A stretch of 64,000 nucleotides of DNA from a virus (IMGVR_UViG_3300031521_000029:38171-102170), one strand, 5' to 3'. Positions 26,135 through 42,127 are shown, numbered from the stretch's first letter. Numbers and translations: made by a program. The notes: generated by a model from the sequence alone, not told the origin.

Positions 26135-27124
26135 ATGGCATTCGATATAAATGGAAAAATAACAGAAAAGACATTACTTCATCTTGTTCCACATGGAATT
26201 AACTCAACGATGTTTCATCCAATTCCATCTGATGATGCTGTATTAAAACGTAAACGTAAAGATATCTTTGGAGAAAAGGATTATAAGTTCGTTCTATTCT
26301 ATAATTCAAGAAACGTTCAAAGAAAGAGAACCAGCAACATCATTTTGGCCTATAAAGCATTTTGTGATAATTTGTCAAAAGAAGATGCTGATAAATGTGT
26401 ATTGGTATTACATACCGAAGTTCGTCAAGACGCAGGTACGGATTTGTTGGCCGTAAAAGAAGCATTTTGTCCAGAATATAACGTTTTCTTTTCAACCCAA
26501 AAGTTGACACCAGAAGACATGAATATAATGTATAACATTGCCGATGTTACTATCAATCTTTCATCTAATGAAGGATTTGGATTATCTACCGCAGAGTCTT
26601 TAATGGCTGGAACACCAATCATCGTGGCTGTCACCGGAGGTCTTCAAGACCAAATCGGACAAGTTAAAGATGACGGTTCTCCAATTGAGTTTGGACTACA
26701 CTTTGGTTCAAACAACGTCGGCAAATACAAGAAACATGGTGTGTGGGCATATCCTATATATCCAGAAGTTAGATGTGTTCAAGGTTCGATTCCAACTCCA
26801 TACATTTTTGATGACATGACTCGTTGGGAAGATGCGGCCGAAGGTATGATGTATTGGTATCTTGCCGGAGCTGATAAACGTGAACTGTTTGGTATGAAAG
26901 GTCGTCAATGGGCATTGAACGATGGTGGAATCAATGCTGAAAATATGTGTAATCAATTTGTTAAGTGTATGGATTATACATTAGCGAATTTCAAGCCCGT
27001 AAAAACGTTTGGTATTTTTACAGAAAAAGATTATGTTGGAAATTTGATGCCGGGTGGTATGGGTTTTGAAATTCCAAAGATTGACCAAGAAAAATTAAAA
27101 CAACAATTGATTGAACAAGTATAA
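26135..27124 (+). CDS. GT4 glycosyltransferase, C-terminal half (split gene)
   Basis: VPHGIN, NSRNVQRK, NEGFGLSTAESLMAGTP, TGGLQDQ; own GGAG RBS. Confidence 0.85.
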   Translation: MAFDINGKITEKTLLHLVPHGINSTMFHPIPSDDAVLKRKRKDIFGEKDYKFVLFYNSRNVQRKRTSNIILAYKAFCDNLSKEDADKCVLVLHTEVRQDAGTDLLAVKEAFCPEYNVFFSTQKLTPEDMNIMYNIADVTINLSSNEGFGLSTAESLMAGTPIIVAVTGGLQDQIGQVKDDGSPIEFGLHFGSNNVGKYKKHGVWAYPIYPEVRCVQGSIPTPYIFDDMTRWEDAAEGMMYWYLAGADKRELFGMKGRQWALNDGGINAENMCNQFVKCMDYTLANFKPVKTFGIFTEKDYVGNLMPGGMGFEIPKIDQEKLKQQLIEQV

Positions 27125-27128
27125 TAAC

Positions 27129-27156
27129 TTGAAAAATTAATCAGTTACAGTATAAT
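27129..27156 (+). promoter_or_regulatory. Sigma70-like promoter
   Basis: TTGAAA-16nt-TATAAT, 9 nt before the dut ATG. Confidence 0.65.
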
Positions 27157-27165
27157 AGGTTTTAT

Positions 27166-27732
27166 ATGAGTCATACATTACAAATAAAAAAACTCAATGA
27201 TTTAGCCGTCATTCCATCAAAAGGAAGTCCTCAATCCGCAGGTTACGACCTTTATTCGACAGAAAAATATACACTAAAACCACTTGAAAGAAAACTGTTT
27301 AAGACGGGTCTATCAATGGCAATTCCAAGTGGAATGTATGGTCGTATTGCTCCTAGAAGTGGACTTGCCTATAAACAAGGCATCGATGTCATGGCGGGAG
27401 TCATCGATGAAGATTATAGAAACGAAGTGGGCGTGGTTTTAATCAATCTTAGCAATGAAGAAGTCGTACTTCCAATTGTTAAAGATGGAAAAGAGACGGC
27501 TATAGCTCAAATTATATTTGAATTCTACAACAACGTAAAAATCGGAGTTGTAGATTCATTGGACGAAACCGAACGGGGACTTGGTGGATTTGGCAGTTCA
27601 GACAAAAAAAAAGTAGAATCTCCGAAAGAAGCCCACAGTCTTATTGAAAAATGGAAGGAATCAGGAGCAGAAAATCCGACGCCTTCAAAATACGAAACTA
27701 TTGTCAGAGAAAGAGAAAAATTAATATCATAA
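27166..27732 (+). CDS. dut: Trimeric dUTPase
   Basis: AGYDL, PRSG, GVIDEDYR, AQ, RGLGGFGSS. Confidence 0.95.
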   Translation: MSHTLQIKKLNDLAVIPSKGSPQSAGYDLYSTEKYTLKPLERKLFKTGLSMAIPSGMYGRIAPRSGLAYKQGIDVMAGVIDEDYRNEVGVVLINLSNEEVVLPIVKDGKETAIAQIIFEFYNNVKIGVVDSLDETERGLGGFGSSDKKKVESPKEAHSLIEKWKESGAENPTPSKYETIVREREKLIS

Positions 27733-27735
27733 ATT

Positions 27736-29082
27736 ATGAGTAAACCATTGTGTATATTTCAAAGTCCCATGTGGACTCGAAGCGGTTACGGAGATTTGGC
27801 CCTAGCATTAGCTAAGAGTCTGCTTAGATACGATAAGTACGACTTGATGGTAGTTCCGACTCGTTGGGGTGGATGCAGCCGAAAATACTCGGCAGATGAC
27901 ATGTCAGACCCATTGGAACAAGAACTATTTAAACGAGTCATTCGACAACCATTGAATAAACAACCCGACCTATTCATTCAGTGTTCAATTCCAAATGAAT
28001 TTCAACCACCTGCAAAGTTTAACATCGGCATTACCGCAGGAATAGAAACAACCATCGCACGCCCGGATTGGATTGAGGGATTGAATCGCATGAACTACAA
28101 TATCGTTACTTCGATGCATGCTAAAAAAGTATTTGAAGAAGCGTCCTATCAAAAAATGGACGAACAAACAAAACAAGTAATTCCAGGTCAAGAACTAAAA
28201 TCAATTAAACCAATGGACGCATTGTTCTGGGGAGCAGATACAAGTATCTATGGAACAGGAAAATCGTTTGAACCAAAAGTAGAAATTGAACTCGAAGCAG
28301 TAAAGGAAGATTTCAACTTTCTATTTGTTGGACAATGGACTAATGGTGGTCTTTTCAACGACAGAAAAGACATTGGCAATCTTATTAAAACCTTCTTGAC
28401 TACGTTCTCAAACATGGGAGCAAAACCAAAGCCAGGCTTGATTATTAAGACAAGTGGCGCTGCGATTTGTAACATGGACAAACATGATATAATCAATCGT
28501 CTAAGGACAGTTAGAGGAATCGTTGAACAAGAAAAAGGAACAAAGGATTTACCAAACGTTTATATTCTTTACGGTGAACTAACTGAATCTGAAATGAATG
28601 CTTTATATAACCATACCAAGGTTAAAGCCCATGTTTCGTTTACTCACGGTGAAGGATTTGGTATGCCACTTCTTTTGTCATCTTTGAGTGGTAAGCCTGT
28701 ATTAGCATCCAACTGGAGCGGTCATTTGGATTTCCTAGATAATAACTTTTGTAAATTACTTGACGGTGAAGTTAAACCTTTGCCTCCTGAATGTGTTAAT
28801 GAATGGTTAATCAAAGATTCTGCGTGGTTTAATGTAAACTACATGAAAGCATCAGAAAGTATGAAAAACTGTTTTCATTTTTATCGTCCATATCTTGAAA
28901 AAGCTGACAAACTTCGTCAAAAAAATGAAGTTGAATTCTCAACTCAGGCAATGGATAAAAAGTTCTGGGAGTATTTGGAAACGCACGTTCCAAAATTTGC
29001 TACTGAACAGAAATTGATTCTTCCTAAACTAAATAAGGTGGTAAAACCAATTATCACAAGTCCGAACACTGGTTCCATATAA
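27736..29082 (+). CDS. GT4 glycosyltransferase
   Basis: TRSGYG, FLFVGQW, DRKDIG, HGEGFGMPLL, NWSGHLDF. Confidence 0.88.
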   Translation: MSKPLCIFQSPMWTRSGYGDLALALAKSLLRYDKYDLMVVPTRWGGCSRKYSADDMSDPLEQELFKRVIRQPLNKQPDLFIQCSIPNEFQPPAKFNIGITAGIETTIARPDWIEGLNRMNYNIVTSMHAKKVFEEASYQKMDEQTKQVIPGQELKSIKPMDALFWGADTSIYGTGKSFEPKVEIELEAVKEDFNFLFVGQWTNGGLFNDRKDIGNLIKTFLTTFSNMGAKPKPGLIIKTSGAAICNMDKHDIINRLRTVRGIVEQEKGTKDLPNVYILYGELTESEMNALYNHTKVKAHVSFTHGEGFGMPLLLSSLSGKPVLASNWSGHLDFLDNNFCKLLDGEVKPLPPECVNEWLIKDSAWFNVNYMKASESMKNCFHFYRPYLEKADKLRQKNEVEFSTQAMDKKFWEYLETHVPKFATEQKLILPKLNKVVKPIITSPNTGSI

Positions 29083-29759
29083 TGAGATTATCGTATCTAG
29101 TTACTGTAAAAAACGAAACTGACACGTTGATTCGGCTTTTAGAAAAGCTGGTCAATAGTCGGGCCGAAGGTGACGAAATTGTTATTGTAGATGATTATTC
29201 TAATAATCCTACAACAATAAAACTTTTAACCGATGTTTGTAAAAATCGTGACGTTTTTGTGTATCTTCATAAGTTAGATAATGACTATGGCGTACATAAA
29301 AACTTCGGAAATACAAAATGCACAGGAGATTGGATATTTCAGTTAGACGGAGACGAATTGCCATCTGACACTTTGATTTTTAATATAAGAGACATCATAT
29401 CAACCAACGTTGACATAGAATTGATATATGTTCCTAGAATTAACGATTTCAAAGGAGTTACCGAAGAACATGCTAAACGATGGGGATGGAAACTAACACC
29501 ATCTCCGTCTTATGACAACAGACCGATTATTAATTGGCCTGATTTTCAGGGTAGAATCTATAAAAAAGATTTGAACCGAATTAAATGGGATAGAAAGTTA
29601 CATGAAAAAATTGTTGGACATGAAAAATATTCATTTCTACCAACTGATGAAGACTTCTCTCTTTATCACGATAAAACAATAGAAACACAAATACAAACGA
29701 ACCTAAGATACAATAAACAATTTAGTGTTGAAGATAATCTTGGTCACAAAGTAACATGA
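29082..29759 (+). CDS. GT2 glycosyltransferase
   Basis: SYLVTVKNE, IVDDYS, WIFQLDGDE, WPDFQGRI, LHE. Confidence 0.88.
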   Translation: MRLSYLVTVKNETDTLIRLLEKLVNSRAEGDEIVIVDDYSNNPTTIKLLTDVCKNRDVFVYLHKLDNDYGVHKNFGNTKCTGDWIFQLDGDELPSDTLIFNIRDIISTNVDIELIYVPRINDFKGVTEEHAKRWGWKLTPSPSYDNRPIINWPDFQGRIYKKDLNRIKWDRKLHEKIVGHEKYSFLPTDEDFSLYHDKTIETQIQTNLRYNKQFSVEDNLGHKVT

Positions 29760-30355
29760 GTGAATGGATAATAAAAAATAACGCCTATAAAAAAGGTATA
29801 AAAGACATCGTCAATAACGATAAAACATTTCAAGAAATTTACCAAGATGTTTTAAATCTTGGTTACAATACTGACAAAGGAACTACTCATGCGTATGTAG
29901 ATAGTTATGCCGAACTATTTAAACCATATCGTAACTTACCAATTAACTTACTTGAAATCGGTATAGATTTTGGATATAGTTTAGCTTTATGGAGAGCATA
30001 TTTCGATAAAGCTCTAATATACGGAATAGATGTTAGAAACGTATTACAATTTACTGAAGATGTGACTCCTATCATTTATGACGGAAACGACCCGTCTATT
30101 ATTGAAAAATATTTTTCTAACATTCAGTTTGATATCATTATTGACGACGCAAGTCATGAAGTTGAACATCAAGTATTACGATTTCCAATTTATTTTCCAA
30201 AACTAAAATCTGGAGGATTATATGTAATTGAAGACGTTCAGGATGTAGATGGTCAAGGAACACAACTAACATCATTAGATTCTTCTGCTCAAATTATCGA
30301 CAATAGAAAAGTTAAAGGCAGATACGATGATGTAATGATAATTTATAGAAAATAA
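29756..30355 (+). CDS. Class I SAM methyltransferase (sugar O-methyltransferase-like)
   Basis: TDKG..H.Y, LLEIGI, FDIIIDDASH, GGLYVIED. Confidence 0.85.
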   Translation: MSEWIIKNNAYKKGIKDIVNNDKTFQEIYQDVLNLGYNTDKGTTHAYVDSYAELFKPYRNLPINLLEIGIDFGYSLALWRAYFDKALIYGIDVRNVLQFTEDVTPIIYDGNDPSIIEKYFSNIQFDIIIDDASHEVEHQVLRFPIYFPKLKSGGLYVIEDVQDVDGQGTQLTSLDSSAQIIDNRKVKGRYDDVMIIYRK

Positions 30356-30357
30356 CA

Positions 30358-31593
30358 ATGAATAAAAACTACAAAGACTTGTCAATATGTCCAGTATCTT
30401 TATCTAAAGAGCATTTGACATATTTAGATTTTGGATTAATGCCTTTGGTGAATAACCTAAACAACACAAAGGAAGAATCTTTAAATTGTCCAAAATATCC
30501 TCTCGTAGTTAATTATTATCCAGAAAGTAAACTATCCATGTTATCAGTGGCAGTTGACCCTTCCATTTTATTTGCCCATTATGTTTATAAATCAGGAACA
30601 AGTCAACCGTATATAGAGCATTGTAAAGAAATGTATAATTACATTTCAAAATTTGTCACTATAAACAATGATGACAGATTCGTTGACATTGGAGGTAATG
30701 ACGGAACTTTATTATCTACATTTATAGAAACTTCAGATAAAAAACTTGACGTAATAAACGTAGACCCATCTGACAATCTTGGAAAAATTTGTAGAAAAAA
30801 AGGCATCATAACATTAACAAAAATGTGGGATGATACCATAGGAATTCAGATGAAAGAGACGTGTAAAGTTATCACATCTACAAACGTATTTCAACATACA
30901 CAAAGTATAGGCAATTTCGCCAGTGGTATATGGAACGCTTTAAAAGATGATGGTATTTGGTGTCTTGAATTTCCATATTGGAGACACGACCTGGAAACCA
31001 ATCAATATGACCAAGTGTATCACGAACATATCTACTACTATCTTTTAACTCCTTTGTTCAAACTGTTTAATGATAGAGGATTTAAAATACTTGATGTATC
31101 TGAACAAAAGATTCATGGCGGAAGTCTTCGTATTATAAGTCAAAAAAGAAACGTAAATAACGATGTAATACCAGAAAGCGTGACAAAAGTTCTTGAATCT
31201 GAAAAAATATTTGATGACAACTTTTACAAAACGTGGGGAGAAAATATGAAAGTTCATATAACAGACAGTAAAAAGTTTCTTTCCAATCTCAAATCGTCAG
31301 GCAAGAAAATTGCTGGATTTGGGGCCGCTGCCAAAGGATGTACATTCTTAAATGCTGCCGGGATAAATCATGAACTTATAGACTACATTGTCGATGATAC
31401 TGATACAAAACAAAACAAATTTATGCCAGGAGTCGGAATAAAAATTGTTAATAGACAACATCTAATTGATAATACACCAGATTATATCGTAATTCTGGCC
31501 CATAACTTTGCAGATTATATCAAATCATCATTAAGACCTATTTATAATGGCAAATTTATTGTTATGTTTCCACAACCTGTGATTTATGACTGA
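30358..31593 (+). CDS. NDP-hexose C-methyltransferase family protein
   Basis: LDFGLMPLVN, YVYKSG, VDIGGNDGTLL, TNVFQH, DQVYHEHIYY, IHGGSLR, GFGAAAKG, ILAHNF. Confidence 0.88.
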   Translation: MNKNYKDLSICPVSLSKEHLTYLDFGLMPLVNNLNNTKEESLNCPKYPLVVNYYPESKLSMLSVAVDPSILFAHYVYKSGTSQPYIEHCKEMYNYISKFVTINNDDRFVDIGGNDGTLLSTFIETSDKKLDVINVDPSDNLGKICRKKGIITLTKMWDDTIGIQMKETCKVITSTNVFQHTQSIGNFASGIWNALKDDGIWCLEFPYWRHDLETNQYDQVYHEHIYYYLLTPLFKLFNDRGFKILDVSEQKIHGGSLRIISQKRNVNNDVIPESVTKVLESEKIFDDNFYKTWGENMKVHITDSKKFLSNLKSSGKKIAGFGAAAKGCTFLNAAGINHELIDYIVDDTDTKQNKFMPGVGIKIVNRQHLIDNTPDYIVILAHNFADYIKSSLRPIYNGKFIVMFPQPVIYD

Positions 31594-32554
31594 TTATTCT
31601 CCATCAAACAAATTCATACATCGTCTTATAAATTACTATAAAAAACACACCGAAGTATCTTGTCTTCCTATCTGGACAGGTACTTACAGTCATCTCCGTG
31701 AACTAATCGACAAAGAAGATATAAACGGTTTACGTAACAAATTAGATACGCTCTACATTGACGATTTATGGGGATTGGATTACAACCAACAGAATAGTTG
31801 GAAATTGCCGTCATATGAAAGTTGTTTCAATATATGCATTGACACCATGGCATCAGAACTTAAATTTTATAACGAATCAACCGAAAAAACTGTCGAAGAA
31901 TTAGAAAAGATTGTAGGATTGAGATTTGATATTCCAGAGTTTCCTTACAGACCCGTAATTAAAGTCGGAGATAGAGATATTCCATTAAGATTTGCGGTTT
32001 GTTATTACATTTTTCACTGTTTAACAAAATATTTAGAGAATGACCCAAATAAAGTTTTGGAAATTGGCGCTGGGACTGGTTATTTTCCATTTTTATTTAT
32101 TAAAAAATATCCTAACGTAAAATATAATATTATAGACTTACCAATCATTTCTGTGATTCAAACTTACATTTATGCGACGATGGTTGGTGAGGATAAAGTT
32201 TGGTTTCATGGAGAACCGACAAATGAGTCTGCCAATTTGCGTATTTATGCGCCTGACTCAATTGACGAAATAGAAGGTCTGATTGATGTAGCATTGAACC
32301 ACAACTCATTTCCAGAGATTCCTCAAGATGTCCAAGAAAAATATCTTGAAAAGATGAAACAACTGTTTTCTTCTAAAGGATTCTTCTATTCGGTCAACTG
32401 GGAACCACATAATAGCGACCAAACTCCTGTAACTGTGGCTTGTAATAAAAATGGACTTACAAATATCAGTCGAAGACTATTCCCAGTTGAAAGTTTTGTT
32501 CACGAACAAACCTCAATCGCATTTTACGAAGAAATATATAAATCAAATGAGTAA
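31586..32554 (+). CDS. Putative sugar O-methyltransferase
   Basis: VLEIGAGTG, YNIIDLP, NHNSFPEI...QEKYL. Confidence 0.7.
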   Translation: MTDYSPSNKFIHRLINYYKKHTEVSCLPIWTGTYSHLRELIDKEDINGLRNKLDTLYIDDLWGLDYNQQNSWKLPSYESCFNICIDTMASELKFYNESTEKTVEELEKIVGLRFDIPEFPYRPVIKVGDRDIPLRFAVCYYIFHCLTKYLENDPNKVLEIGAGTGYFPFLFIKKYPNVKYNIIDLPIISVIQTYIYATMVGEDKVWFHGEPTNESANLRIYAPDSIDEIEGLIDVALNHNSFPEIPQDVQEKYLEKMKQLFSSKGFFYSVNWEPHNSDQTPVTVACNKNGLTNISRRLFPVESFVHEQTSIAFYEEIYKSNE

Positions 32555-33275
32555 AAGTTTAATTGCAATTCTACACTACAATTCAATCCAATATACGGAT
32601 AATTTGTATGAAATGTTAAAACCATACGAACGTAATGATTATGATTTGGTGGTTATTGATAACGGTAGCGATGAAGGAAAATCAAGCAAGTATTCAACCT
32701 ACCGTTCAGACGAGAATACGTGTTATGGTGGAGGTTTGGACATGGCATTGAACCTATTTATTGAAGACAAACAATACGACTCGTTTACATTACTCAATTC
32801 TGATATTATAGTTCATGGTTATAACTTCATTAAGTCGTTGAGAGAACAATTATTTAAACAAGACGATTTAATGGTCATTTCTCCATGCGTGATTCAACCA
32901 GAGAAAAACCAATGTTTTTGGAAACAATGTCATTGTTGGAATGCAAAGGAAATACGAATAGTCCCTTTTGTAGACTATCAATGCGCTTTTATGAAACGTC
33001 AGTTTGCTGAAAAGGTTCAATCCTTTGGTAGTAAGTATGGATGGGTTCAAGATATTATGACAGGAATTATCTGTGAAGATAACAATTGGAAGATTGGTGT
33101 CTGTGATTGGTTGCCTATCGTTCATATCGGCAATGGAACAGTAAAAGATAACCCTAAAATGTATAATTATAATATTCTTGCCCAAGAAGAGATGAATAAG
33201 TATTTCTTGGAAAAAGGATTGACAAACAGGGTAAATCAGTTAAAATTGAAATCTATAGGTTATAAATATGAATAA
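32547..33275 (+). CDS. GT2-like glycosyltransferase
   Basis: AILHYN, VIDNGS, LLNSDI; likely start MSKSL at 32547. Confidence 0.75.
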   Translation: MSKSLIAILHYNSIQYTDNLYEMLKPYERNDYDLVVIDNGSDEGKSSKYSTYRSDENTCYGGGLDMALNLFIEDKQYDSFTLLNSDIIVHGYNFIKSLREQLFKQDDLMVISPCVIQPEKNQCFWKQCHCWNAKEIRIVPFVDYQCAFMKRQFAEKVQSFGSKYGWVQDIMTGIICEDNNWKIGVCDWLPIVHIGNGTVKDNPKMYNYNILAQEEMNKYFLEKGLTNRVNQLKLKSIGYKYE

Positions 33276-34008
33276 AATAAACGTGGTAATACCAATGGCA
33301 GGTCTTGGAAAGAGATTTTCGGACTGCGGATACAAATTACCAAAGCCATTTTTACCAATCGGCGATAAGACGATGATTGAACAAGTCATCTTAAATTTGA
33401 ATCAATTCGGTCATCATACATTCTATTTTACTTTTGTAATAAATATGAATCAGCTTGATGTTGGTGAATTTGAAAATAAATTAAAAAATCTCAATCTCAA
33501 GAATTATCAAATCGTCTTCATAGATTTTGTTCCAAAAGGGCCCGCGGCATCTGCATTAATTGGTGTTGAAAAAACCGACATTTCATTGCCATTGATTATC
33601 ACAAATTGTGACCAAATCATTGAAGATTATAATTTTGAACTTTTCAACAAATTCTGTGATGTGAATCAAGCCGAAGGTGTGTTGGGGACATTTCATTCAT
33701 CAAGTCCAAAAAACAGTTACGTTAGATTAAGCGATACCAATGAGGTAATCGATGTAAAAGAAAAGGAAGTTATTAGTAATGTGGCAACGAACGGATTTCA
33801 TTGGTGGAAAAAAGGAGTATTCTTTGTAACATCAGTAAATCAAATGAAACAAAATAATGATACGGTAAATGGCGAATTCTATGTTGCCCCTTCTTACAAT
33901 TACCTTATTCAGAAAGGTATGAAGGTTATGCCTTACTCTTTTAATATGCATTATCCAATTGGAACTCCTAAAGATTATGAAACGTATAAGACGTTAAGAC
34001 ATCTATGA
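33268..34008 (+). CDS. Sugar-phosphate nucleotidyltransferase (BcbE-like)
   Basis: NVVIPMAGLGKRF...PKPF, GPAAS, ITNCDQ, VKEKEVIS, VNGEFYVAPSYN, IGTPKD. Confidence 0.88.
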   Translation: MNKINVVIPMAGLGKRFSDCGYKLPKPFLPIGDKTMIEQVILNLNQFGHHTFYFTFVINMNQLDVGEFENKLKNLNLKNYQIVFIDFVPKGPAASALIGVEKTDISLPLIITNCDQIIEDYNFELFNKFCDVNQAEGVLGTFHSSSPKNSYVRLSDTNEVIDVKEKEVISNVATNGFHWWKKGVFFVTSVNQMKQNNDTVNGEFYVAPSYNYLIQKGMKVMPYSFNMHYPIGTPKDYETYKTLRHL

Positions 34009-34325
34009 AAGTAATAAGAAACCAAAAATGGACAGGTGGTTGGTTTATTGGTAATTTTGAACCGTCCGCATTTAAAACCGACGAAGTTGAGGTATGTTTT
34101 AAACAGCATGCAAAAGGAGAGAAGTGGCCGACCCATTATCATAAAATTGCCACCGAAATTAATTATGTTATTCGTGGCAAAATGACCATTCAAAATGACA
34201 CATTCAATACTGGCGATGTGTTTATTATTGAACCAAATGAAATCGCCGACCCCATGTTTTTAGAGGATTGTGAATTAATTGTAGTAAAATTGCCATGCGC
34301 AAAAAACGATAAATACGAGATATGA
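34005..34325 (+). CDS. Cupin-domain protein
   Basis: GGWFIGNFEP, HYHKIATEINYVIRG, GDVFIIEP. Confidence 0.85.
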   Translation: MKVIRNQKWTGGWFIGNFEPSAFKTDEVEVCFKQHAKGEKWPTHYHKIATEINYVIRGKMTIQNDTFNTGDVFIIEPNEIADPMFLEDCELIVVKLPCAKNDKYEI

Positions 34326-35524
34326 TAGACATTTTCAGACCAAATTACGACGAGTCAATTCTAAATAAATACTACTTGGTTACTTACTACTTAGAGAGTC
34401 GAACCACGTTAAAGGATGCTGCGTGGAATCTTGCAATTGGTCAATCAGTAGGAAATCCACACAATCGTTCAGAGTTTGAAACGGATAAATTATTTGAAGA
34501 CCACTCATGTCTTATTCTGGCTCATCCAGATGAACTAAATGAACTTCAAAAAGGAGAGGTCGTTATTGCATTTCCTGAAAAGAATATCAACTTTACAGAA
34601 GACGGCATCTCATCATTGTTGGTTCAAATCATGGGCGGGCAATGTGATATTGACGTTGTTCATAAATGTGTGGTAAAAAACATTCAACTTACCAGTTCAA
34701 TGCTTGGATGTTTAAAACGTCCATATTTCGGATTAAGTGGTATGAGAAAATTCTGTCAAGTTCCTAATAATCAGGTATTGTTTGGAGCTATCGTTAAACC
34801 GAAAGTAGGCCTCGCACCAAAAAAACATCTCGAACTTGTAAAACAATTCATAGATAACGGTTGTAATTTTATTAAAGAAGATGAAATTTTATCCAATCAA
34901 GCATTTTGTCCAATCGAAGAACGTGTACCTCTTGTAGCAAATTACATCCGTAATACCAATGCCAAAGTGTTTTATTGTGTATCTCTACAAGCGGATGCAC
35001 ATAAAGTATTAGAATATAGTAAACGTGTATTGGAATTGGGTGGTAATGGAATACATGTAAATTTTCATTGTGGCATGGGAATCTATAAATCAATTCGTGA
35101 AATGAATCTTCCACTTTTGATGCACTTTCAGAAGAGCGGAGATAAAATTTTAAATTGTATTGACCACAGATATTCTATTGACCAGTCAGTATTATTCAGA
35201 TTAGCTGCCTTAAGTGGTTGTGATACGTTACATGCAGGAATGATAGGCGGTTATATGGATAATGATACTGAGGAATTGAAAGTCATCATAAAACAACTAA
35301 ATGAAATTAACGCCGTACCAGCTCTAAGTTGTGGCATGCATCCTGGCCTTGTTGATTACATAACTGACATATTAGGTCATACCAATTGGATGGCAAACGT
35401 TGGCGGAGCCATCACATCACATCCAAATGGAACGGCGGCAGGAGTTAGGGCAATGAATCAAGCCGTGACTAAAAATTATGGAGATGATTATGAATCTGCA
35501 ATTAAGAAATGGGGTAAAAAATGA
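34322..35524 (+). CDS. RuBisCO-like protein (form IV/RLP)
   Basis: GAIVKPKVGL, GCNFIKEDE (K185, carbamylation-site equivalent), LHAGMIGG, PALSCGMHPG, ANVGGAITSHPNG. Confidence 0.9.
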   Translation: MIDIFRPNYDESILNKYYLVTYYLESRTTLKDAAWNLAIGQSVGNPHNRSEFETDKLFEDHSCLILAHPDELNELQKGEVVIAFPEKNINFTEDGISSLLVQIMGGQCDIDVVHKCVVKNIQLTSSMLGCLKRPYFGLSGMRKFCQVPNNQVLFGAIVKPKVGLAPKKHLELVKQFIDNGCNFIKEDEILSNQAFCPIEERVPLVANYIRNTNAKVFYCVSLQADAHKVLEYSKRVLELGGNGIHVNFHCGMGIYKSIREMNLPLLMHFQKSGDKILNCIDHRYSIDQSVLFRLAALSGCDTLHAGMIGGYMDNDTEELKVIIKQLNEINAVPALSCGMHPGLVDYITDILGHTNWMANVGGAITSHPNGTAAGVRAMNQAVTKNYGDDYESAIKKWGKK

Positions 35525-36003
35525 AATTTATCAGCCATAGAGGCAATATCAACGGTCAAAAATCAGAAAAAGAAAACAAACCATCTTATATTCAAAAAGC
35601 ATTAGATGCTAATTTTGATGTAGAAATTGATGTATGGTATTATAACAAAAAATGGTGGCTTGGTCATGATAGACCACAGTACAAAACAACGTTCAGATGG
35701 TTATTTCAAAGACATAGTAAATTATGGATTCATTGTAAAAACCTGGAAGCGTTACATAAATTAACAAGACGTGATGGTAAAAATTTATGGAATCAAAACT
35801 TAAATTATTTTTGGCATCAAAATGATGACTTTACGTTAACAAGTAAAGGATTTATTTGGACATATCCAAGACAACCATTAACTAATAATTCTATATGTGT
35901 TTATCCTGAAAAGTTTGCAGGCTTAAAAAAAGAATTAGATAATTGTCATGGAATGTGTTCTGATAACATAGCTGAAATAAAAGGCAAACGAATCTATGAA
36001 TAA
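35521..36003 (+). CDS. GDPD/PLC-like phosphodiesterase-fold protein
   Basis: ISHRGN, EN, DVEIDVW, LGHD, WIHCKN. Confidence 0.8.
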   Translation: MKFISHRGNINGQKSEKENKPSYIQKALDANFDVEIDVWYYNKKWWLGHDRPQYKTTFRWLFQRHSKLWIHCKNLEALHKLTRRDGKNLWNQNLNYFWHQNDDFTLTSKGFIWTYPRQPLTNNSICVYPEKFAGLKKELDNCHGMCSDNIAEIKGKRIYE

Positions 36004-36799
36004 ATTAGTTTTATATTGTAAATCATTCAGCCGCGATGTTCATCGTTGTAAATTACTTCTTGATTCTGTCATAAAGTATAATAAAGATTCTATACCATTT
36101 TACATATCCGTTCCTAAAGAAGATATTCAGTTATTCAAAACGACATTAGGAATCGATGGATACGTTCTTATCTCGGACGAAGAACTCATGAATGAGTCGT
36201 TATGTCAATCTTGGAAAAACCAACAAATCGTTAAGATGGTATTCTGGAAAAATATAGAAACTGAAAACTATGTGATTTTGGATTCAGATTCTTACTTCAT
36301 AAAGGATTTCTATTACAAGGATTTCTTAGTTACCGATTCCATCCCTTACACTGTGATGCACGAACAGAAGGATTTGTTTCAATGGACGGCAAGATACAAA
36401 GACCATCTTGGATTCAACCCACAACAATCGTTTGCCGAATGTAGAACACCAATTCAAGAGTTATTTGATAGAAAAGGAAGACTTTATGACTTTGGGCCTG
36501 TTCCAGTCATCTGGTCTTCAAAAGTGTGGCAAAGTTTGGAAGAAGAATATATTAAACCAAATAACTTGACATTTGAAGGTTTAATTAATACAATATCATC
36601 GGAATTCACCTGGTACGGGGAATGGTTTTTGGTAAGAAAACCCATTGAATTATGGCCTATCGAACCAATTTTTAAAGTGTTCCATTATATGCCAGAATAC
36701 CAACAACTAAAACAGTTAGGTTATACCGAAGAACATTGGAAAGATAATTACTTGGGTATAGTGATGCAATCGAGTTCAGGATTACCATTACAATATTAA
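35996..36799 (+). CDS. GT-A-like (DUF6492-like) glycosyl/phosphotransferase
   Basis: WKNQQIVKM, YVILDSDSYF, SEFTWYG. Confidence 0.6.
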   Translation: MNKLVLYCKSFSRDVHRCKLLLDSVIKYNKDSIPFYISVPKEDIQLFKTTLGIDGYVLISDEELMNESLCQSWKNQQIVKMVFWKNIETENYVILDSDSYFIKDFYYKDFLVTDSIPYTVMHEQKDLFQWTARYKDHLGFNPQQSFAECRTPIQELFDRKGRLYDFGPVPVIWSSKVWQSLEEEYIKPNNLTFEGLINTISSEFTWYGEWFLVRKPIELWPIEPIFKVFHYMPEYQQLKQLGYTEEHWKDNYLGIVMQSSSGLPLQY

Positions 36800-36800
36800 T

Positions 36801-37130
36801 ATGATAAAATCAATAAAAATTCATATAATTTATAATGTAATATATTTTTGCATTATTATACTAATATGTCTAATTAAAAACAGTCCACCAACCATTGATA
36901 CTGATAAGTTGCAAAAATTATGTAATAAATACACAGAATATGGTTATTTTTGTGGGCAACAAGATGCTTTAACTAACAATTATAGAATTGCATATGTTAC
37001 TAATATTGTTACTACTACGAACAAAGAATGGATATGGATTAAATCTCCGTAGGATGTAAAACCTAAAAATCCAACTATTACTAATTTAAATTTTACTAAT
37101 GTTCAGGAACTTTTTAAAGATACTCAATAA
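36801..37130 (+). pseudogene. Membrane-anchored small protein interrupted by TAG at 37050-37052
   Basis: N-terminal TM; ...WIWIKSP-TAG-DVKPKNP... frame stays open for 25 more codons to TAA at 37128. Confidence 0.45.
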
Positions 37131-37132
37131 TT

Positions 37133-37166
37133 TCCTAACGTTTTATATCCTAACGATATATTTATT
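37133..37166 (+). promoter_or_regulatory. Direct repeat TCCTAACG x2 plus late-type motif
   Basis: TCCTAACG at 37133 and 37148, TATTTATT at 37159, ATG at 37170. Confidence 0.55.
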
Positions 37167-37169
37167 ACT

Positions 37170-37319
37170 ATGGGCCGGAATAAACTAAACCGAACAGACG
37201 AAGAAATACGAGAACAAAATCGTATTCGTCAAAGGAGATTTTATGACAAACATAGTAAGCGAATTAGAAAAGAAAAACTTAAAAAATATTACGAACGAAA
37301 AAAAGAGGAATTGTCCTAG
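37170..37319 (+). CDS. 49-aa basic helical protein (not in the ORF track)
   Basis: MGRNKLNRTDEEIREQNRIRQRRFYDKHSKRIRKEKLKKYYERKKEELS*; promoter motif 3 nt upstream. Confidence 0.7.
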   Translation: MGRNKLNRTDEEIREQNRIRQRRFYDKHSKRIRKEKLKKYYERKKEELS

Positions 37320-38070
37320 TTGTGGTAAAGAATTATTTTATAAAACGAAATGTGGGTTTGACAAGGCAAATAGTAATAATTCAAAATGTCATACTTGTTC
37401 TAGTTCAGGAGAAAACAATGGATTTTATGGCAAGAAACATTCTAAACAATTAAAATCAAAGTTCTCTAAAGAGAGAAAATCGTGGTATATTGGGAAAGAT
37501 AATCCAATGTATAAACAATCCGTTTATGATTTGTGGGTTAAAAAATATGGAAAAGATGTTGCCGATGAAAAACAGAAAATTGCCAATCACAAAAATAAAT
37601 TGTCCAATGATGGAGAAAACAATGGATTTTATGGCAAGAAACATTCTAAACAATTAAAATCAAATTTTTCTAAAAATAGAATAGGCAAAACCAATCCCAA
37701 TCATGGAAATAAACACACGGAAGAATGGAAAGAGAATCAAAGAAAACGAACAATTCAAAGAATTAAAGAGTTTACTCAAGGAAAAATAGGATTTAATCCT
37801 AATGCATGTAAATATTTAGATAGATTAAATGAAGAACGGGGATGGAACCTACAACACGCTTTAAATGGTGGAGAAGTTGAATGTATAGGTTATAGTTTAG
37901 ATGGATATGATAAAAAGAGAAATATTGTAGTAGAATATGATGAACCATTACATAATAAACCAACACAAAGAAAAAAAGATATACTACGAATGAATAGAAT
38001 TAAAAAATATTTACATTGTAAATTTTATAGATACAATGAAGAAACTAATGAGTTAAAAAAATATGAATGA
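37243..38070 (+). CDS. Homing endonuclease (Zn ribbon + NUMOD3 repeats + Vsr/EDxHD-like nuclease)
   Basis: CPSC...CHTC; GENNGFYGKKHS x2; FNPNAC...HALNGGE...LDGYD...VEYDEPLH. Confidence 0.8.
   Translation: MTNIVSELEKKNLKNITNEKKRNCPSCGKELFYKTKCGFDKANSNNSKCHTCSSSGENNGFYGKKHSKQLKSKFSKERKSWYIGKDNPMYKQSVYDLWVKKYGKDVADEKQKIANHKNKLSNDGENNGFYGKKHSKQLKSNFSKNRIGKTNPNHGNKHTEEWKENQRKRTIQRIKEFTQGKIGFNPNACKYLDRLNEERGWNLQHALNGGEVECIGYSLDGYDKKRNIVVEYDEPLHNKPTQRKKDILRMNRIKKYLHCKFYRYNEETNELKKYE
37408..37664 (+). repeat. Exact 53-bp duplication (37408-37460 and 37612-37664) encoding a NUMOD3 motif
   Basis: GGAGAAAACAATGGATTTTATGGCAAGAAACATTCTAAACAATTAAAATCAAA occurs twice. Confidence 0.92.
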
Positions 38071-38959
38071 ATCACCGATATCATACTGTATAGGAACGTG
38101 TAATAACCTTCCTTACTTAAAACTTGCAATAGATTCTGTTCGTAAATATTCACATTTTAAAAATTCTCCTATTATAATCTTTGCGGAAAATTGCGATAAA
38201 GATAATACCTATGAATGGTTAAATGAAAATAAAGAAAAATATAATTTAACAGTTATAATAGAAAATAACGAAAATCCAAAGGGTATAGGACAGTCGATGA
38301 ACGTTACGGCAAGTCAGGCCAAGACCGAATACATTTTATTTTTGCATAGTGATATGTTTATCAGTAAGAATTTAGATTTAGAATGTCTTAAAATATTTGA
38401 AAAATATCCCAATGAAAAACTTTGGGTTAATCCATTCCGGTTTCAGCCGAATTGTTTTAAAGAAAATGATAGACCAGGAACCAATTTTTTTAGTTACGAA
38501 CATTTTGGTTATAAAGCCGATGATTTTGATGAACCATTCTTTATTGATTACGCCGAAGAATTTTCTAAATTAAATCCAAATGTTGAAATACCAAAAGGCG
38601 AGGGTGTAAGTGGAATGATTCGTAAGTCGGATTGGGATAGTCTTGGAGGGTGTGACCCACAATTTATTGCTTATTATGATGATTCTGATATTTTTCTTAG
38701 GGCAAGATTGGCTGGTTATAAATTTATAATTACAACTAATACTGTGGCGTGGCATTTTGGTAGTAGGTCAGATAAAAGTAATTTTCCAACAGACGAAATA
38801 ATTCGGTCAGAGAAATCTAAACACTATGAAATGGAAAGTTCACAAAAATTTTACAAAAAGTGGGGATTTTTACCAATAAATGATAAATATGGATTCGTAG
38901 ATTTTCCACCAAATATTGATAAAACCAAATATGAACATTTAACCAGATTAAATGTATGA
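38063..38959 (+). CDS. GT2 glycosyltransferase
   Basis: NNLPYLKLA, FLHSDM, GGCDPQF, DDSD, WHFGS. Confidence 0.85.
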   Translation: MNESPISYCIGTCNNLPYLKLAIDSVRKYSHFKNSPIIIFAENCDKDNTYEWLNENKEKYNLTVIIENNENPKGIGQSMNVTASQAKTEYILFLHSDMFISKNLDLECLKIFEKYPNEKLWVNPFRFQPNCFKENDRPGTNFFSYEHFGYKADDFDEPFFIDYAEEFSKLNPNVEIPKGEGVSGMIRKSDWDSLGGCDPQFIAYYDDSDIFLRARLAGYKFIITTNTVAWHFGSRSDKSNFPTDEIIRSEKSKHYEMESSQKFYKKWGFLPINDKYGFVDFPPNIDKTKYEHLTRLNV

Positions 38960-39138
38960 AAAGTATCGATGAAATTACATATCAAAAATATTTAGATGAC
39001 CATTATTCTAAATTTATTAGAGTAATAGGCGATTGGAAAGTTCTTGATGTGTGTCCTATGAATTTTAATTTATTTTTATCACATAAAAAATTTGGATTAT
39101 TTAAAGAATTTTATGAAACAACTATCAGAACTAGCTAA
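38956..39138 (+). CDS. Small hypothetical protein
   Basis: 60 aa, overlapping both neighbours. Confidence 0.5.
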   Translation: MKSIDEITYQKYLDDHYSKFIRVIGDWKVLDVCPMNFNLFLSHKKFGLFKEFYETTIRTS

Positions 39139-39742
39139 AAACTTTAGTACAGACAAAGGCATCGGACTTCACGAGTATACGGAAGTTTATGATGACTATC
39201 TTTCAAAATTGAAAGACGATAAAATGAATTTTCTTGAAATCGGAGTCTTTACAGGAGAATCATTAAAACTATGGGAAGCATATCTTCCAAACTCCAACAT
39301 TATTGGACTGGATATCAATCCAGACTGCGCAAAGTATGCAGGCGGACGTAAAAAGGTCTACATCGGTTCACAAACAGATGACGTTCTCCTATACACTATT
39401 GCCAAAGAAAATGCGCCTATATCTGTCATTATTGATGACGGCAGTCATAACTGGGACCATCAAATAATTACATTTCGTGCATCATTTCCGTTATTGAAGC
39501 CAGGCGGCCTTTATTTCATAGAAGACCTCCACACATCATATGCTGGTAATTGGGCGGGTGGCACGCAAACTGGCGTCGATTTCCTCAAAGATTTGGTGGA
39601 TGATGTGATGTTGCATGGTAAAAGTTTCATGGGAACTCAAGAAATTGGAAATCAACCACTATCTTACATTGAACATCACATCGAATATATTCATTTCTAT
39701 AAAAGCCTCTGTGTCATAAAAAAACGTGAAATAGCTTTGTGA
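39113..39742 (+). CDS. Class I SAM methyltransferase (paralog of 29756..30355)
   Basis: TDKG, FLEIGV, IGSQTD, IIDDGSH, GGLYFIEDL; likely start MKQL at 39113. Confidence 0.85.
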   Translation: MKQLSELAKNFSTDKGIGLHEYTEVYDDYLSKLKDDKMNFLEIGVFTGESLKLWEAYLPNSNIIGLDINPDCAKYAGGRKKVYIGSQTDDVLLYTIAKENAPISVIIDDGSHNWDHQIITFRASFPLLKPGGLYFIEDLHTSYAGNWAGGTQTGVDFLKDLVDDVMLHGKSFMGTQEIGNQPLSYIEHHIEYIHFYKSLCVIKKREIAL

Positions 39743-40530
39743 TAACCTGTAAATTCATAGGCAAGTTGGGCAATCATATGTATCAGACTGCTGCGACGAT
39801 TAAACTCGCTGAACAGTTAAATACCGATTTTGTACTTCCTGCAAAGTCTCACGCAGGTCATTATGGTGACATATCTCCTGACTTCTCTGGATTTTCATAT
39901 CCATTCAAGTTTCAAGATGTTAATTTACCAAATAAATTCAATCAACCAACGTTTGGTTATACCCCAATCGAAGTAAAAGATGACTTAGAATTAAACGGAT
40001 TTTATCAAGCTCATCAATATTTCGATGACGTTCGAGATAAATTAATAAACAAATATTTCAAATTTAAAGATGAAATAATCAATTGGTCACACAAATATGA
40101 GATTACTGAAAACAGCGTCGGTATAAGTGTAAGACGTGGCGATTATCTTTGGCTACAACACAATCATTGTGTCTTATCATCTAAATATTATCAAGATGCT
40201 TTGAGTCAGATTACAGACGTCGATAAAATATTCTTTTTCAGTGATGATATTAAGTGGTGTCGTGAAAATACATTTCTTTCAGAAGATGATTCTGATATGG
40301 TGACTTTTGTAGAAGATGATAAGTGGGTTCAATTATACATGATGACCCAAATGAAACAGTTAATTTTATCAAATTCTACCTTTGCTTGGTGGGGTGGTTA
40401 TCTTAATACTAAAGCCACTAAAATTATTATTCCTGACCCTTGGTTTGGGCCGGCCAATGACCATCATGATTCAAGTGGATTGTATTGTCCAAATTGGATT
40501 AGACAAAAACATAACATTGTGATTGTATGA
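39739..40530 (+). CDS. GT11 alpha-1,2-fucosyltransferase-like
   Basis: GKLGNHMYQ, GFYQ, SVRRGDY, FSDDIKW, NSTFAWWG. Confidence 0.9.
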   Translation: MITCKFIGKLGNHMYQTAATIKLAEQLNTDFVLPAKSHAGHYGDISPDFSGFSYPFKFQDVNLPNKFNQPTFGYTPIEVKDDLELNGFYQAHQYFDDVRDKLINKYFKFKDEIINWSHKYEITENSVGISVRRGDYLWLQHNHCVLSSKYYQDALSQITDVDKIFFFSDDIKWCRENTFLSEDDSDMVTFVEDDKWVQLYMMTQMKQLILSNSTFAWWGGYLNTKATKIIIPDPWFGPANDHHDSSGLYCPNWIRQKHNIVIV

Positions 40531-41195
40531 AAGTAGCCATAATAATTCCAGGTCAACCACGAAATATTCAAGTAGCATATGATTCACTAAAGGAACATTA
40601 TTTGGATAAACATGATTGTGATTTCTTCATTCACACGTGGTTTGATAAAAAATTCCCATCCGAAACCTACGGGAAAATGATTGACTTATTCAAACCAAAA
40701 AAGATATTAATAGAAGACCAAATCATATTTGATAGTGAAGGAAGAAAACAAGAACCTTGGAATACTCCGTTACAAAATCTATTGTCGATGTATTATTCTA
40801 TGTTCATGGGCAATCAATTGAAATGTAAATACGAAGAAGAAAAGAATTTCAAATATGACTTCGTTATAAAAATGAGAAGCGATTTAAAAATTCACAGACC
40901 TATCCCACTCGACCAAATAGAGCCAAACAAATTAGCGCTTTACAAATGGACTCAATTAGGTTACACTGGCAGTTCAGATGTTTTTGCGGTTGGGTCGTCA
41001 AAAATCATGGATATATATTCATGGTTGTATAATAGAGTAATGTATTATTTAGATGAAGACCCTACGTGGAATATTAATGAACCAAAAATGAGGGCTGAAT
41101 ATATTCTCCACCATCATTTGAATACGAACGATGTTCCTGTTCAAATCTTTTGGCATGGTGACCAGACCGACCCAAGTTTCCATTTAATTAGATGA
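40527..41195 (+). CDS. Putative glycosyltransferase-like glycan-locus protein
   Basis: KVAIIIPGQPR, DFFIHTW, SMYYS, YDFVIKMRSD, SDVFAVG. Confidence 0.6.
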   Translation: MKVAIIIPGQPRNIQVAYDSLKEHYLDKHDCDFFIHTWFDKKFPSETYGKMIDLFKPKKILIEDQIIFDSEGRKQEPWNTPLQNLLSMYYSMFMGNQLKCKYEEEKNFKYDFVIKMRSDLKIHRPIPLDQIEPNKLALYKWTQLGYTGSSDVFAVGSSKIMDIYSWLYNRVMYYLDEDPTWNINEPKMRAEYILHHHLNTNDVPVQIFWHGDQTDPSFHLIR

Positions 41196-42127
41196 AAACT
41201 CGTATTATAATTCATGTATTGCCTTTCGAGATTGATAGGTTTGAGCATCAAATGTTTGAGCTTAAAAAGAACTTTGCATTTCTAACAGAAGATGACGTTG
41301 TGGATTTTGATGTTACATTAAATGTCAATAATCTACTTACCGATTGGGATAATAGTCTACTTCCTCAACGTTATTTTATAGATAGATATTATGAAATAGC
41401 ATTAGGTCTATTTCAAAAAGAAAAAATGAGCTTTAACATCAGCGCCAATAACGAATGTTTAGGAGTGGATGATAAAAGACGACAGGCAATAAGAAAACAC
41501 GCCTCCACTTGTGACAATTTCTTATATCTGGACAATGATATGTTCTATCCTAATACAACATTGAAATATATGTTGGACGCGGCTAAATCTATAAAAAATC
41601 AATATTATATTCTATCCCCCCAATTGCCTAAACTGTGGGAACCAAGTTGGGATGTATTAGTGAATGAAAATTACATCAATAAACCATTTGAAGATTCTAC
41701 GTGTGAAAAATATACTACTGACCAATTTGAAGTATTTACAAGAGATTATGGTGATATTGAAGTAGTTCCTATTAATACATTCAAAATGGGTGGCGGGTGG
41801 TTTAATTTAATATCATCCAATCTTCTGGCATATACAGACATTCCTGATTCATTCGGCCCTTATGGTCTTGATGATACATTTGTTATAGATGCCTGTAAGA
41901 TTATGAAAAGTCTTAATATGGATGTTCAACAGTATGTATTAAAGAATCTTGTAGTTACACAGAGTTATCAATATGAGTTACATCATGTCTATAAGAATTA
42001 CCTAAAATTTAATATAAAACAAAAACAGATTTTTGCCGCCAATGCTCAGAAATCATACCAAGACGAAATAAACAAATTTTCAGAAAGATGTAAACATGAT
42101 ATCATTCATAATTCCAACAAGAAATAA
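41192..42127 (+). CDS. GT-A-fold putative glycosyltransferase
   Basis: FLYLDNDM (DxD), FGPYGLDD. Confidence 0.55.
   Translation: MKTRIIIHVLPFEIDRFEHQMFELKKNFAFLTEDDVVDFDVTLNVNNLLTDWDNSLLPQRYFIDRYYEIALGLFQKEKMSFNISANNECLGVDDKRRQAIRKHASTCDNFLYLDNDMFYPNTTLKYMLDAAKSIKNQYYILSPQLPKLWEPSWDVLVNENYINKPFEDSTCEKYTTDQFEVFTRDYGDIEVVPINTFKMGGGWFNLISSNLLAYTDIPDSFGPYGLDDTFVIDACKIMKSLNMDVQQYVLKNLVVTQSYQYELHHVYKNYLKFNIKQKQIFAANAQKSYQDEINKFSERCKHDIIHNSNKK

Follow-up and report, generated by a model that had tools for sequence, protein, structure and literature searches.

A RuBisCO-like protein of phages is linked to a sugar-phosphate nucleotidyltransferase in a mobile cassette that probably makes glycan precursors

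What does a relative of RuBisCO do inside a phage glycosyltransferase island? We asked this of a 64,000-nucleotide stretch of viral DNA (IMGVR_UViG_3300031521_000029:38171-102170; "the window" below means this whole stretch), which is part of a 102-kb phage record in IMG/VR. The window encodes a RuBisCO-like protein (RLP) in a run of four genes, together with a sugar-phosphate nucleotidyltransferase (NT), a small cupin and a miniature phosphodiesterase of the GDPD type (mini-GDPD). A first-pass annotation, made from the sequence alone, had proposed that this RLP works biosynthetically, supplying a sugar phosphate for nucleotide activation. We found that the RLP gene is linked to the NT gene in phages and in cells. 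The four genes are probably the core of a mobile glycan-precursor cassette that has two modules, one for activation and transfer and one, made up of the RLP and the cupin, for precursor supply.

The four genes are joined by ATGA overlaps, as had been claimed; we read these directly in the DNA at 34005, 34322 and 35521. The coupling extends further on both sides. An 8-nt overlap, ATGAATAA, couples an upstream open reading frame (ORF) to the NT gene, and an 8-nt overlap of the same sequence couples the mini-GDPD gene to a DUF6492 gene. Each of these two outer neighbors was found in only 2 of 80 related loci, and we therefore rejected them as core parts of the cassette.

The RLP belongs to the RuBisCO large-subunit superfamily (PF00016, 115.3 bits against a cut-off of 30.1, E = 4e-33). 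A profile of its family matched about 99 solved RuBisCO and RLP sequences, the best of them 8dht (E = 1e-45). We mapped the active site on an alignment of 80 members of the family, 23 form II/III RuBisCOs and two OiaX-type RLPs. K175, K177, K201, D203, E204, S379, G381, G403 and G404 were kept in 80/80 or 79/79 of the family rows that have a residue at the position. Four of these core residues, K175, K201, D203 and E204, correspond to K159, K185, D187 and E188 of the window's RLP and are invariant in 80/80 rows. H327 was kept in 65 of 80 rows and is Q in a subclade from DPANN archaea and SAR11. Judged by this pattern, the enolization machinery (the carbamylated-Lys/Mg2+ centre) and the P1 phosphate site appear to be intact.

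Other positions were substituted in every family row: E60 by G, T65 by N, N123 by G, H294 by Q, K334 by Y and G380 by C. The residues at E60, N123, H294 and K334 are G40, G106, Q270 and Y311 in the window's RLP, versus E, N, H and K in 23/23 form II/III rows. R295 is K in 70 of 80 family rows, and the H298 position is D in 67 of the 80. Polarity is retained at the distal site, and the protein falls short of form I enzymes by about 75 residues. Because E60, N123, H294 and K334 are lost, the RLP is predicted not to be a carboxylase; that is, residues for CO2 addition and for cleavage of the six-carbon intermediate appear to be gone. The first-pass annotation, working from an alignment by eye, was right on the kept enolization and metal core and on the losses it listed (loop-6 Lys to Tyr, HR to QK, and the E60 region).

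The RLP is also not a recognizable member of a characterized RLP family. It scored far under the cut-off of every NCBIfam equivalog model: 134 bits against 497 for form III (TIGR03326), 117 against 700 for OiaX (NF042437), and 116 against 409 (NF007095) and 85 against 514 (TIGR03332) for MtnW. Genuine form III enzymes outscored it on the MtnW models, with 230-280 bits. By these scores the RLP is an orthologue of neither MtnW nor OiaX. We saw no MtnA-, MtnB- or MtnK-type gene adjoining the RLP in the loci examined. The four-carbon acid sugar kinase was not among the recurrent neighbor families of the cassette loci; it was present beside the reference OiaX-type genes (L149 and L152).

We compared gene neighborhoods in three sets of loci: 80 phage loci from IMG/VR with RLPs 48-81% identical to that of the window, 36 cellular loci with RLPs 35-67% identical, and 31 form II/III RuBisCO loci from the same scan, which served as a built-in control. 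The NT gene was found in 78 of the 80 phage loci, the cupin gene in 77, the mini-GDPD gene in 69, and genes for two further families, DUF7796 and WavE, in 49 and 22. In the 36 cellular loci the corresponding counts were 32, 9, 23, 9 and 8. None of the five was found in the form II/III loci. The NT gene thus adjoined the RLP gene in 110 of 116 loci of the clade and in 0 of 31 loci of other forms (Fisher p = 4e-26, uncorrected for relatedness). The first-pass annotation had looked for a distinct clade always linked to NT, cupin and GDPD genes. The clade and its link to the NT gene held up (see below for the tree). In contrast, the trio was often incomplete in cells, where the cupin gene and, less often, the mini-GDPD gene were missing.

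Partner genes in the phage loci were nearly always on one strand, yet they occurred in more than 20 different gene orders. This argues for selection for closeness and not just for shared inheritance. Fusions link the same proteins. Two database proteins of 813 and 817 residues (P0121 and P0122) are RLP-NT-cupin fusions, and we read three further fusions in DNA: NT-cupin (L079), NT-GDPD (L098) and GDPD-DUF7796 (L013). In addition, a cluster of 196 viral proteins of 350 residues matches the cupin model, and 27% of them carry NTP_transferase. A complex prediction of the RLP with the NT scored 0.00, which counts neither for nor against an interaction.

All RLP loci examined had glycan-related neighbors: GT2, GT4, GT61 and GT17 glycosyltransferases, methyltransferases and short-chain dehydrogenases/reductases (SDRs). 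An SDR of the epimerase/4,6-dehydratase type recurred in 37 of 80 phage loci and 10 of 36 cellular loci. We also observed that in a SAR11 subclade (the single-cell genome L111, and L102-L106 and L112), with RLPs about 38% identical to the window's, two paralogous NT genes flank the RLP gene (at 7216-7956 and 9205-9942 in L111). A cupin was not detected in this subclade.

The partner proteins are largely what they had been taken for. The NT matches PF00483 (36.4 bits, cut-off 21.2), and its family profile matches, over the full length, an NDP-sugar pyrophosphorylase of solved structure that is functionally uncharacterized (PDB 4evw, E = 6e-35). After 4evw, the matches drop to about 1e-10 (RmlA, GlmU and mannose-1-phosphate guanylyltransferases). 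G12, G14, R16, F17 and K26 are invariant, so that the G-x-G-x-R signature and the conserved Lys are present. The cupin matches Cupin_7 (30.2 bits, cut-off 27). Its H35, E39, H44, H46 and E51 are invariant, and H44-x-H46-x4-E51 aligns with the metal motif of the quercetinase YxaG. We rejected the cupin as an orthologue of RmlC or FdtA: there was no sequence signal for either in a Pfam scan or in a profile search of solved structures, and it has the metal motif instead.

The phosphodiesterase had no Pfam match, PF03009 included. However, H6, R7, E18, N19, E35, D37, H49 and D50 (the HR, EN, ExD and HD motifs) are invariant in 25 sequences, and the family profile matches the GDPD 7e0v (E = 1.5e-4) with the same motifs aligned. 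An AlphaFold2 (AF2) model with a pLDDT of 92.7 found GDPDs as its best Foldseek matches, and these were weak (E = 9e-3 to 0.2, TM by query 0.45-0.58). A complete (beta/alpha)8 GDPD barrel has about 240 residues. The protein is a shortened relative of the GDPD superfamily, not a standard member.

The DUF7796 protein of the window falls just under the cut-off of PF25072 (E = 1.3e-5; 24.7 bits, cut-off 27). Its AF2 model (pLDDT 85.6) resembles retaining glycosyltransferases with the GT-A fold: BoGT6a (4ayl, E = 2e-8) came first, then GTA/GTB and glycogenin, and across these GT6 and GT8 enzymes E was 2e-8 to 4e-6 with a TM of about 0.5-0.58. Its profile aligns with WavE (hhalign probability 90%). 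D111, R117 and D119 are invariant. Genes for DUF7796 or WavE often overlap cassette genes in phage RLP loci. Based on the predicted fold, DUF7796/WavE is a candidate fifth partner and a candidate transferase for the NT product.

We found the cassette without an RLP in several settings. In the cultured cyanomyoviruses S-CAM9 and DSL-LC03, the glycosyltransferase island holds a HAD-NT fusion and a second HAD along with a mini-GDPD and three DUF7796 paralogues. Phage S-SM2 has a long NT, a mini-GDPD, DUF7796, two small HAD-like proteins and a class II aldolase-like gene. A Pseudomonas aeruginosa plasmid has two NT copies, the phosphodiesterase, a HAD, an orthologous cupin (E = 4e-31) and WavE. 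A kinase of the APH type, a small HAD and an NT occur together on a Legionella plasmid (which additionally has two WavE genes), on an Escherichia coli ST131 plasmid (where they adjoin Stealth and CDP-glycerol glycerophosphotransferase genes) and in the chromosomal O20/O137 O-antigen cluster of E. coli. Because the unit of NT, GDPD, cupin and GT-A protein is widespread without it, the RLP is best seen as an exchangeable precursor-supply part and not as the centre of the cassette. The NT and the GT-A protein, often with the GDPD, form the stable unit. The supply genes can be exchanged for one another, the RLP (with or without the cupin) being one option. A kinase, HAD or class II aldolase in place of the RLP is what would be expected if the RLP is one of several suppliers of sugar phosphates to the NT.

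Two of these variants have annotations that deserve comment. In E. coli O20:H12, the O20/O137 cluster at the galF-gnd locus opens (L159, 7044-9756) with a small HAD, a 529-residue homologue of the APH-like kinase (annotation: "hypothetical"), and a protein of the NT family that goes under the name "glycosyltransferase family 2" and matches the NT profile with E = 6e-42. The published O20 structure does not fit the O20/O137 cluster (review, PMC7685785). In S-SM2, two proteins of about 105 residues (L155, 6693-7004 and 8334-8663; 46% identical to each other) are annotated "phosphoheptose isomerase". We rejected them as GmhA. They are about half the length of GmhA, and the 109-residue copy matches a small HAD-family protein (27% identity, E = 8e-7); the annotation therefore looks wrong.

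Based on the translational coupling, the kept core of the active site, the synteny, the variety of gene orders, the fusions, the GT-A fold, the glycan context and the variants without an RLP, we infer that the RLP supplies a precursor for biosynthesis, and we propose the following substrate, order of steps, product and target. The RLP would most likely enolize a phosphorylated ketose at its Mg-carbamate centre and reprotonate it elsewhere, which would make it an isomerase or epimerase; for the substrate our guess is a 1-phospho-pentulose or a related bisphosphate. The cupin might carry out a second metal-dependent isomerization, as in the type II PMI-GMP (phosphomannose isomerase-GDP-mannose pyrophosphorylase) enzymes. 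The NT, of the 4evw type, would then activate the resulting unusual sugar phosphate with a nucleotide, and the neighboring DUF7796/WavE glycosyltransferase would add the product to a glycan. The mini-GDPD, the remaining member of the activation and transfer module, might open a cyclic or diester precursor to a phosphomonoester, or it might trim the transferred group.

The enzyme families found across the cassette variants match those of methionine salvage: an APH-type kinase as for MtnK, a class II aldolase-like protein as for MtnB, an RLP, a HAD as for MtnX, and a cupin as for MtnD. By analogy, this match suggests a parallel pentose-1-phosphate chemistry turned towards the building of glycans. 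It is possible, although here we are more doubtful than confident, that in this RLP clade the RuBisCO superfamily has its first biosynthetic member. Such an RLP would reshape, with no kinase, a 1-phospho-pentulose or other ketose phosphate drawn from host nucleotide or sugar pools, and the product would be activated and would end up as a furanose or ketose residue of a glycan.

Several points weigh against the supply of a precursor by the RLP and cupin. The five proteins and their close relatives are known from genes and models alone, and the loci behind the synteny counts are related and not independent of one another. A simple path that leads from sugar-1-phosphate through NDP-sugar to glycan has no evident step for the phosphodiesterase. 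Most cellular loci lack the cupin, which therefore cannot be essential to the RLP reaction. The GT-A gene of the window is not adjacent to the cassette and lies 4.5 kb downstream. The NT could act before the RLP and not after it, and the target could be the host envelope, the virion or something else.

A different order of steps would have the RLP and cupin act after activation, with the two enolizing a nucleotide-linked keto-sugar (the NT having made an NDP-sugar, or an SDR an NDP-keto-sugar from it) and the diphosphate held in the P1 site. The recurrence of the SDR would suit this order, as would the substitution of the loop-6 Lys and the shortened protein, which could open the site. The sugar epimerases and ketoisomerases of nucleotide-sugar pathways, of the RmlC and FdtA type, are cupins, and the RLP-NT-cupin fusions are compatible with either order. 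However, more than half of the loci lack the SDR, as does the plus-strand cassette of the window, the H-x-H...E pattern of the cupin is a metal-cupin motif with no match to the RmlC or FdtA families in the searches described above, and we know of no RuBisCO-family enzyme that takes a nucleotide-linked substrate. We consider this order of steps quite improbable. It is also unlikely, in our estimation, that the product is not a glycosyl donor and that an activated phospho-alcohol or polyol (of the CDP-ribitol, CDP-arabinitol or CDP-glycerol type) is made instead and becomes a phosphodiester-linked substituent, with the mini-GDPD making a phosphomonoester from a phosphodiester or trimming the transferred group. 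There is a precedent in the CDP-arabinitol route of pneumococci, in which xylulose-5-phosphate is cytidylylated and then reduced. The fusions of GDPD to NT and to DUF7796 bring phosphodiester chemistry near to activation and transfer, the genes next to the E. coli plasmid variant include Stealth and CDP-glycerol glycerophosphotransferase, and NTs of the same fold include IspD, inositol-1-phosphate cytidylyltransferase and LicC, which match the NT weakly. On the other hand, the best relatives of the NT after 4evw are sugar-1-phosphate enzymes (RmlA and the mannose-1-phosphate guanylyltransferases), and DUF7796 resembles retaining GT-A glycosyltransferases that use NDP-sugars, not known phosphotransferases.

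A further reading is salvage or catabolism that merely happens to be sited in a glycan island. The chemistry could be like that of methionine salvage, with an RLP enolase and a cupin dioxygenase, or it could follow an AMP/ribose-bisphosphate route that recycles host nucleotides during infection. Known pairs of an RLP and a cupin occur in methionine salvage (MtnW and MtnD) and in the methylthioadenosine (MTA)-isoprenoid shunt of Rhodospirillum rubrum, and the likeness of the variant families to MtnK, MtnB, MtnX and MtnD points the same way. However, the one universal partner, a nucleotidyltransferase, plays no part in those pathways, the RLP scores far too low on the MtnW models, and all contexts examined are glycan loci. 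No MtnA/e2b2-type isomerase or AMP phosphorylase was seen in the annotated and Pfam-scanned neighborhoods, where no dedicated search for them was run. We think salvage or catabolism very improbable as the function of the cassette and prefer the supply of a precursor to the NT.

The RLPs of the cassette form a single clade. In a maximum-likelihood tree of 107 sequences, the cassette-linked RLPs (50 phage and 30 cellular rows after removal of near-duplicates) all lay on one side of a branch with an SH-aLRT of 100, and form I, II/II-III, III and OiaX-type sequences lay on the other. The RLP of the window is monophyletic with the 79 other cassette-linked sequences. The tree held no MtnW, DeepYkr or IV-Photo references, and separation from those is based on Jaffe et al. 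and on the model scores. Phage rows and cellular rows are intermixed, with 5-6 changes of label on the tree, which implies repeated exchange between phages and cells. Relatives of the RLP are encoded by 339 IMG/VR stretches. The cellular carriers include SAR11 (a complete Pelagibacter genome among them), Saccharibacteria, Beckwithbacteria, Verrucomicrobia, Planctomycetes, Woesearchaeota and Micrarchaeota. A tblastn search of 50,697 deposited phage genomes with the RLP gave no match; that is, no cultured phage of that collection carries it.

This clade appears to have been described before. Jaffe, Castelle, Dupont and Banfield (2019, Mol Biol Evol; PMC6389311) reported about 80 sequences from phages, termed "Form IV-like", which cluster with Beckwithbacteria apart from every other RLP; no function is assigned in the passages concerned. 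Their phages were of the Myoviridae type, with one of roughly 200 kb, and the sequences were described as highly divergent from canonical RLPs with some key residues kept. The window's RLP is likewise phage-borne and divergent, and its clade takes in a Beckwithbacteria sequence. We take the two clades to be the same because a Beckwithbacteria metagenome-assembled genome (L094, RLP 46% identical) sits within ours; the match is by description and not sequence to sequence. Those passages leave function open and mention no partner gene, and the cassette, the fusions, the SAR11, DPANN and Verrucomicrobia carriers and the variants without an RLP come from the present analysis. Literature searches for an RLP with a nucleotidyltransferase and a cupin, or with a glycosyltransferase and polysaccharide, returned nothing relevant. 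The phage RLP clade itself thus appears to have been published in 2019; the literature open to search yielded no description of the cassette, its fusions, the GT-A partner or the variants without an RLP.

Two unusual proteins turned up in the same analysis. P0123, a database protein of 724 residues, is an RLP of the clade with a C-terminal extension of about 330 residues that matches neither Pfam nor the island proteins of the window. On a Bradyrhizobium guangzhouense plasmid (L150, cbb region), a frame matching RbcL runs from a GAPDH-like N-terminal part into the RbcL C-terminal domain. It is absent from the plasmid's gene table and may be a chimeric or broken gene.

The features of the window are listed in Table 1. 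The gene content includes a family B DNA polymerase, a ribonucleotide reductase and a DnaB-type helicase. By comparison of polymerases, the nearest cultured relative is Microcystis phage Mel-JY01 (41.5% identity). The cassette does lie within a glycosyltransferase island, as had been noted from the sequence. The island contains two GT1, three GT2 and a GT11 gene, a Methyltransf_14 sugar C-methyltransferase, further methyltransferases, a dUTPase and a NUMOD3 gene. The NUMOD3 motif is typical of homing endonucleases, and this gene sits mid-island between the cassette and the next GT2 gene. Directly after the island, on the opposite strand, are an RmlD-like SDR gene, which could belong to the sugar pathway, and a DruA-like gene.

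Table 1. Cassette genes and other features of the window (positions counted from its first nucleotide)
Feature	Position	Strand	Basis
ClpP-type protease gene, just ahead of island	24030-24593	+	
Glycosyl/methyl-transferase island around cassette (~17 kb)	26135-43352	+	Pfam matches
dUTPase gene, embedded between two GT1 genes	27166-27732	+	
ORF, 274 aa, no Pfam match, coupled to NT gene	32451-33275	+	ATGAATAA overlap at 33268
NT, sugar-phosphate nucleotidyltransferase, 4evw type, 246 aa	33268-34008	+	PF00483, 4evw profile match
Small cupin with metal motif, 106 aa	34005-34325	+	Cupin_7
RLP, 400 aa, predicted non-carboxylating, probable "Form IV-like" clade	34322-35524	+	PF00016
Miniature GDPD-type phosphodiesterase, 160 aa	35521-36003	+	motifs, profile, fold
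DUF6492 protein, 267 aa, coupled to GDPD gene	35996-36799	+	PF20102 (E = 7e-17); ATGAATAA overlap at 35996
NUMOD3-motif ORF, 275 aa	37243-38070	+	
DUF7796 protein, 222 aa, predicted GT-A fold	40527-41195	+	PF25072 (under cut-off), AF2, Foldseek
RmlD-like SDR gene	44015-44881	-	
DruA-like gene	44878-45630	-	PF14236

All RLPs with an assigned function that we know of act in salvage or catabolism. A clade that is wired, and sometimes fused, to an NT in glycan loci would, if our reading is true, give the RuBisCO superfamily a biosynthetic role. It could also expose a nucleotide-sugar pathway by which abundant marine and freshwater phages, SAR11, bacteria of the candidate phyla radiation and DPANN archaea vary their surfaces, and it bears on phage-host recognition. 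No nucleotide precursor pathway is known for D-Ribf or D-Xulf (E. coli O-antigen review, PMC7685785), and the literature that we found gives no donor pathway for side chains of D-Ribf, D-Xulf or fructofuranose. Because the NT family heads the O20/O137 O-antigen cluster of E. coli, a laboratory strain is available for testing the question. Natural "swap" experiments also follow from the modular picture; in these, an RLP, a kinase plus HAD, or a class II aldolase feeds the same NT and GT-A protein. The linkage is well founded and may surprise specialists, and the modular reading and the laboratory-tractable relatives may be new.

How does the cassette compare to known systems? The characterized RLPs, including the MtnW/YkrW enolase, the methylthioribulose-1-phosphate isomerase of R. 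rubrum and OiaX/OiaK of apiose catabolism, share with the window's RLP the fold, the carbamate-Lys/Mg2+ centre and the loss of carboxylation residues, at identities of 30% or less. OiaX of Rhizobium etli has Tyr at the K334 position, as does the RLP clade. In contrast, K177 is kept in the clade and lost in OiaX, and OiaX-type genes adjoin a four-carbon acid sugar kinase gene in catabolic operons, whereas the clade adjoins the NT in glycan loci.

Among activation enzymes, BcbE from the type B capsule locus of Pasteurella multocida, after which the first-pass annotation named the NT, is a protein of about 240 residues with an NDP-sugar-transferase fold that is found in capsule loci (IPR016873; PMC11641403). 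Mutants in bcbE and bcbG lose the fructose, a ketose, side chain of this capsule (PMC13552107). The agreement between the NT and BcbE is in length, in fold and in the PGAP names of homologues ("capsular biosynthesis protein" and "glycosyltransferase family 2 protein"). If the NT were of the BcbE family, the link to a ketose would readily account for partnership with an RLP; no RLP has been reported from the P. multocida locus. The nucleotide-heptose pathways with HddA, GmhB and HddC have a kinase/HAD/NT layout like that of the RLP-less relatives that head glycan clusters, and the PDB matches of the NT include HddC-like structures (6jq8, E = 3e-8). The kinase of those relatives is of the APH and not the GHMP type, however, and supply in the window falls to an RLP and a cupin, neither a kinase nor a HAD being among the supply genes.

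In the type II PMI-GMP enzymes AlgA, ManC and XanB, an NTP_transferase domain is followed by a cupin isomerase domain, and the two serve one nucleotide-sugar pathway. Unlike these enzymes, the NT is nearest to 4evw, the cupin scores too low for the MannoseP_isomer model, and no phosphomannomutase is linked to the cassette. The order of NT and cupin and the natural NT-cupin fusions nevertheless copy the layout of AlgA, ManC and XanB, and the PDB matches of the cupin include a 113-residue cupin named mannose-6-phosphate isomerase (7zvm, E = 4e-4).

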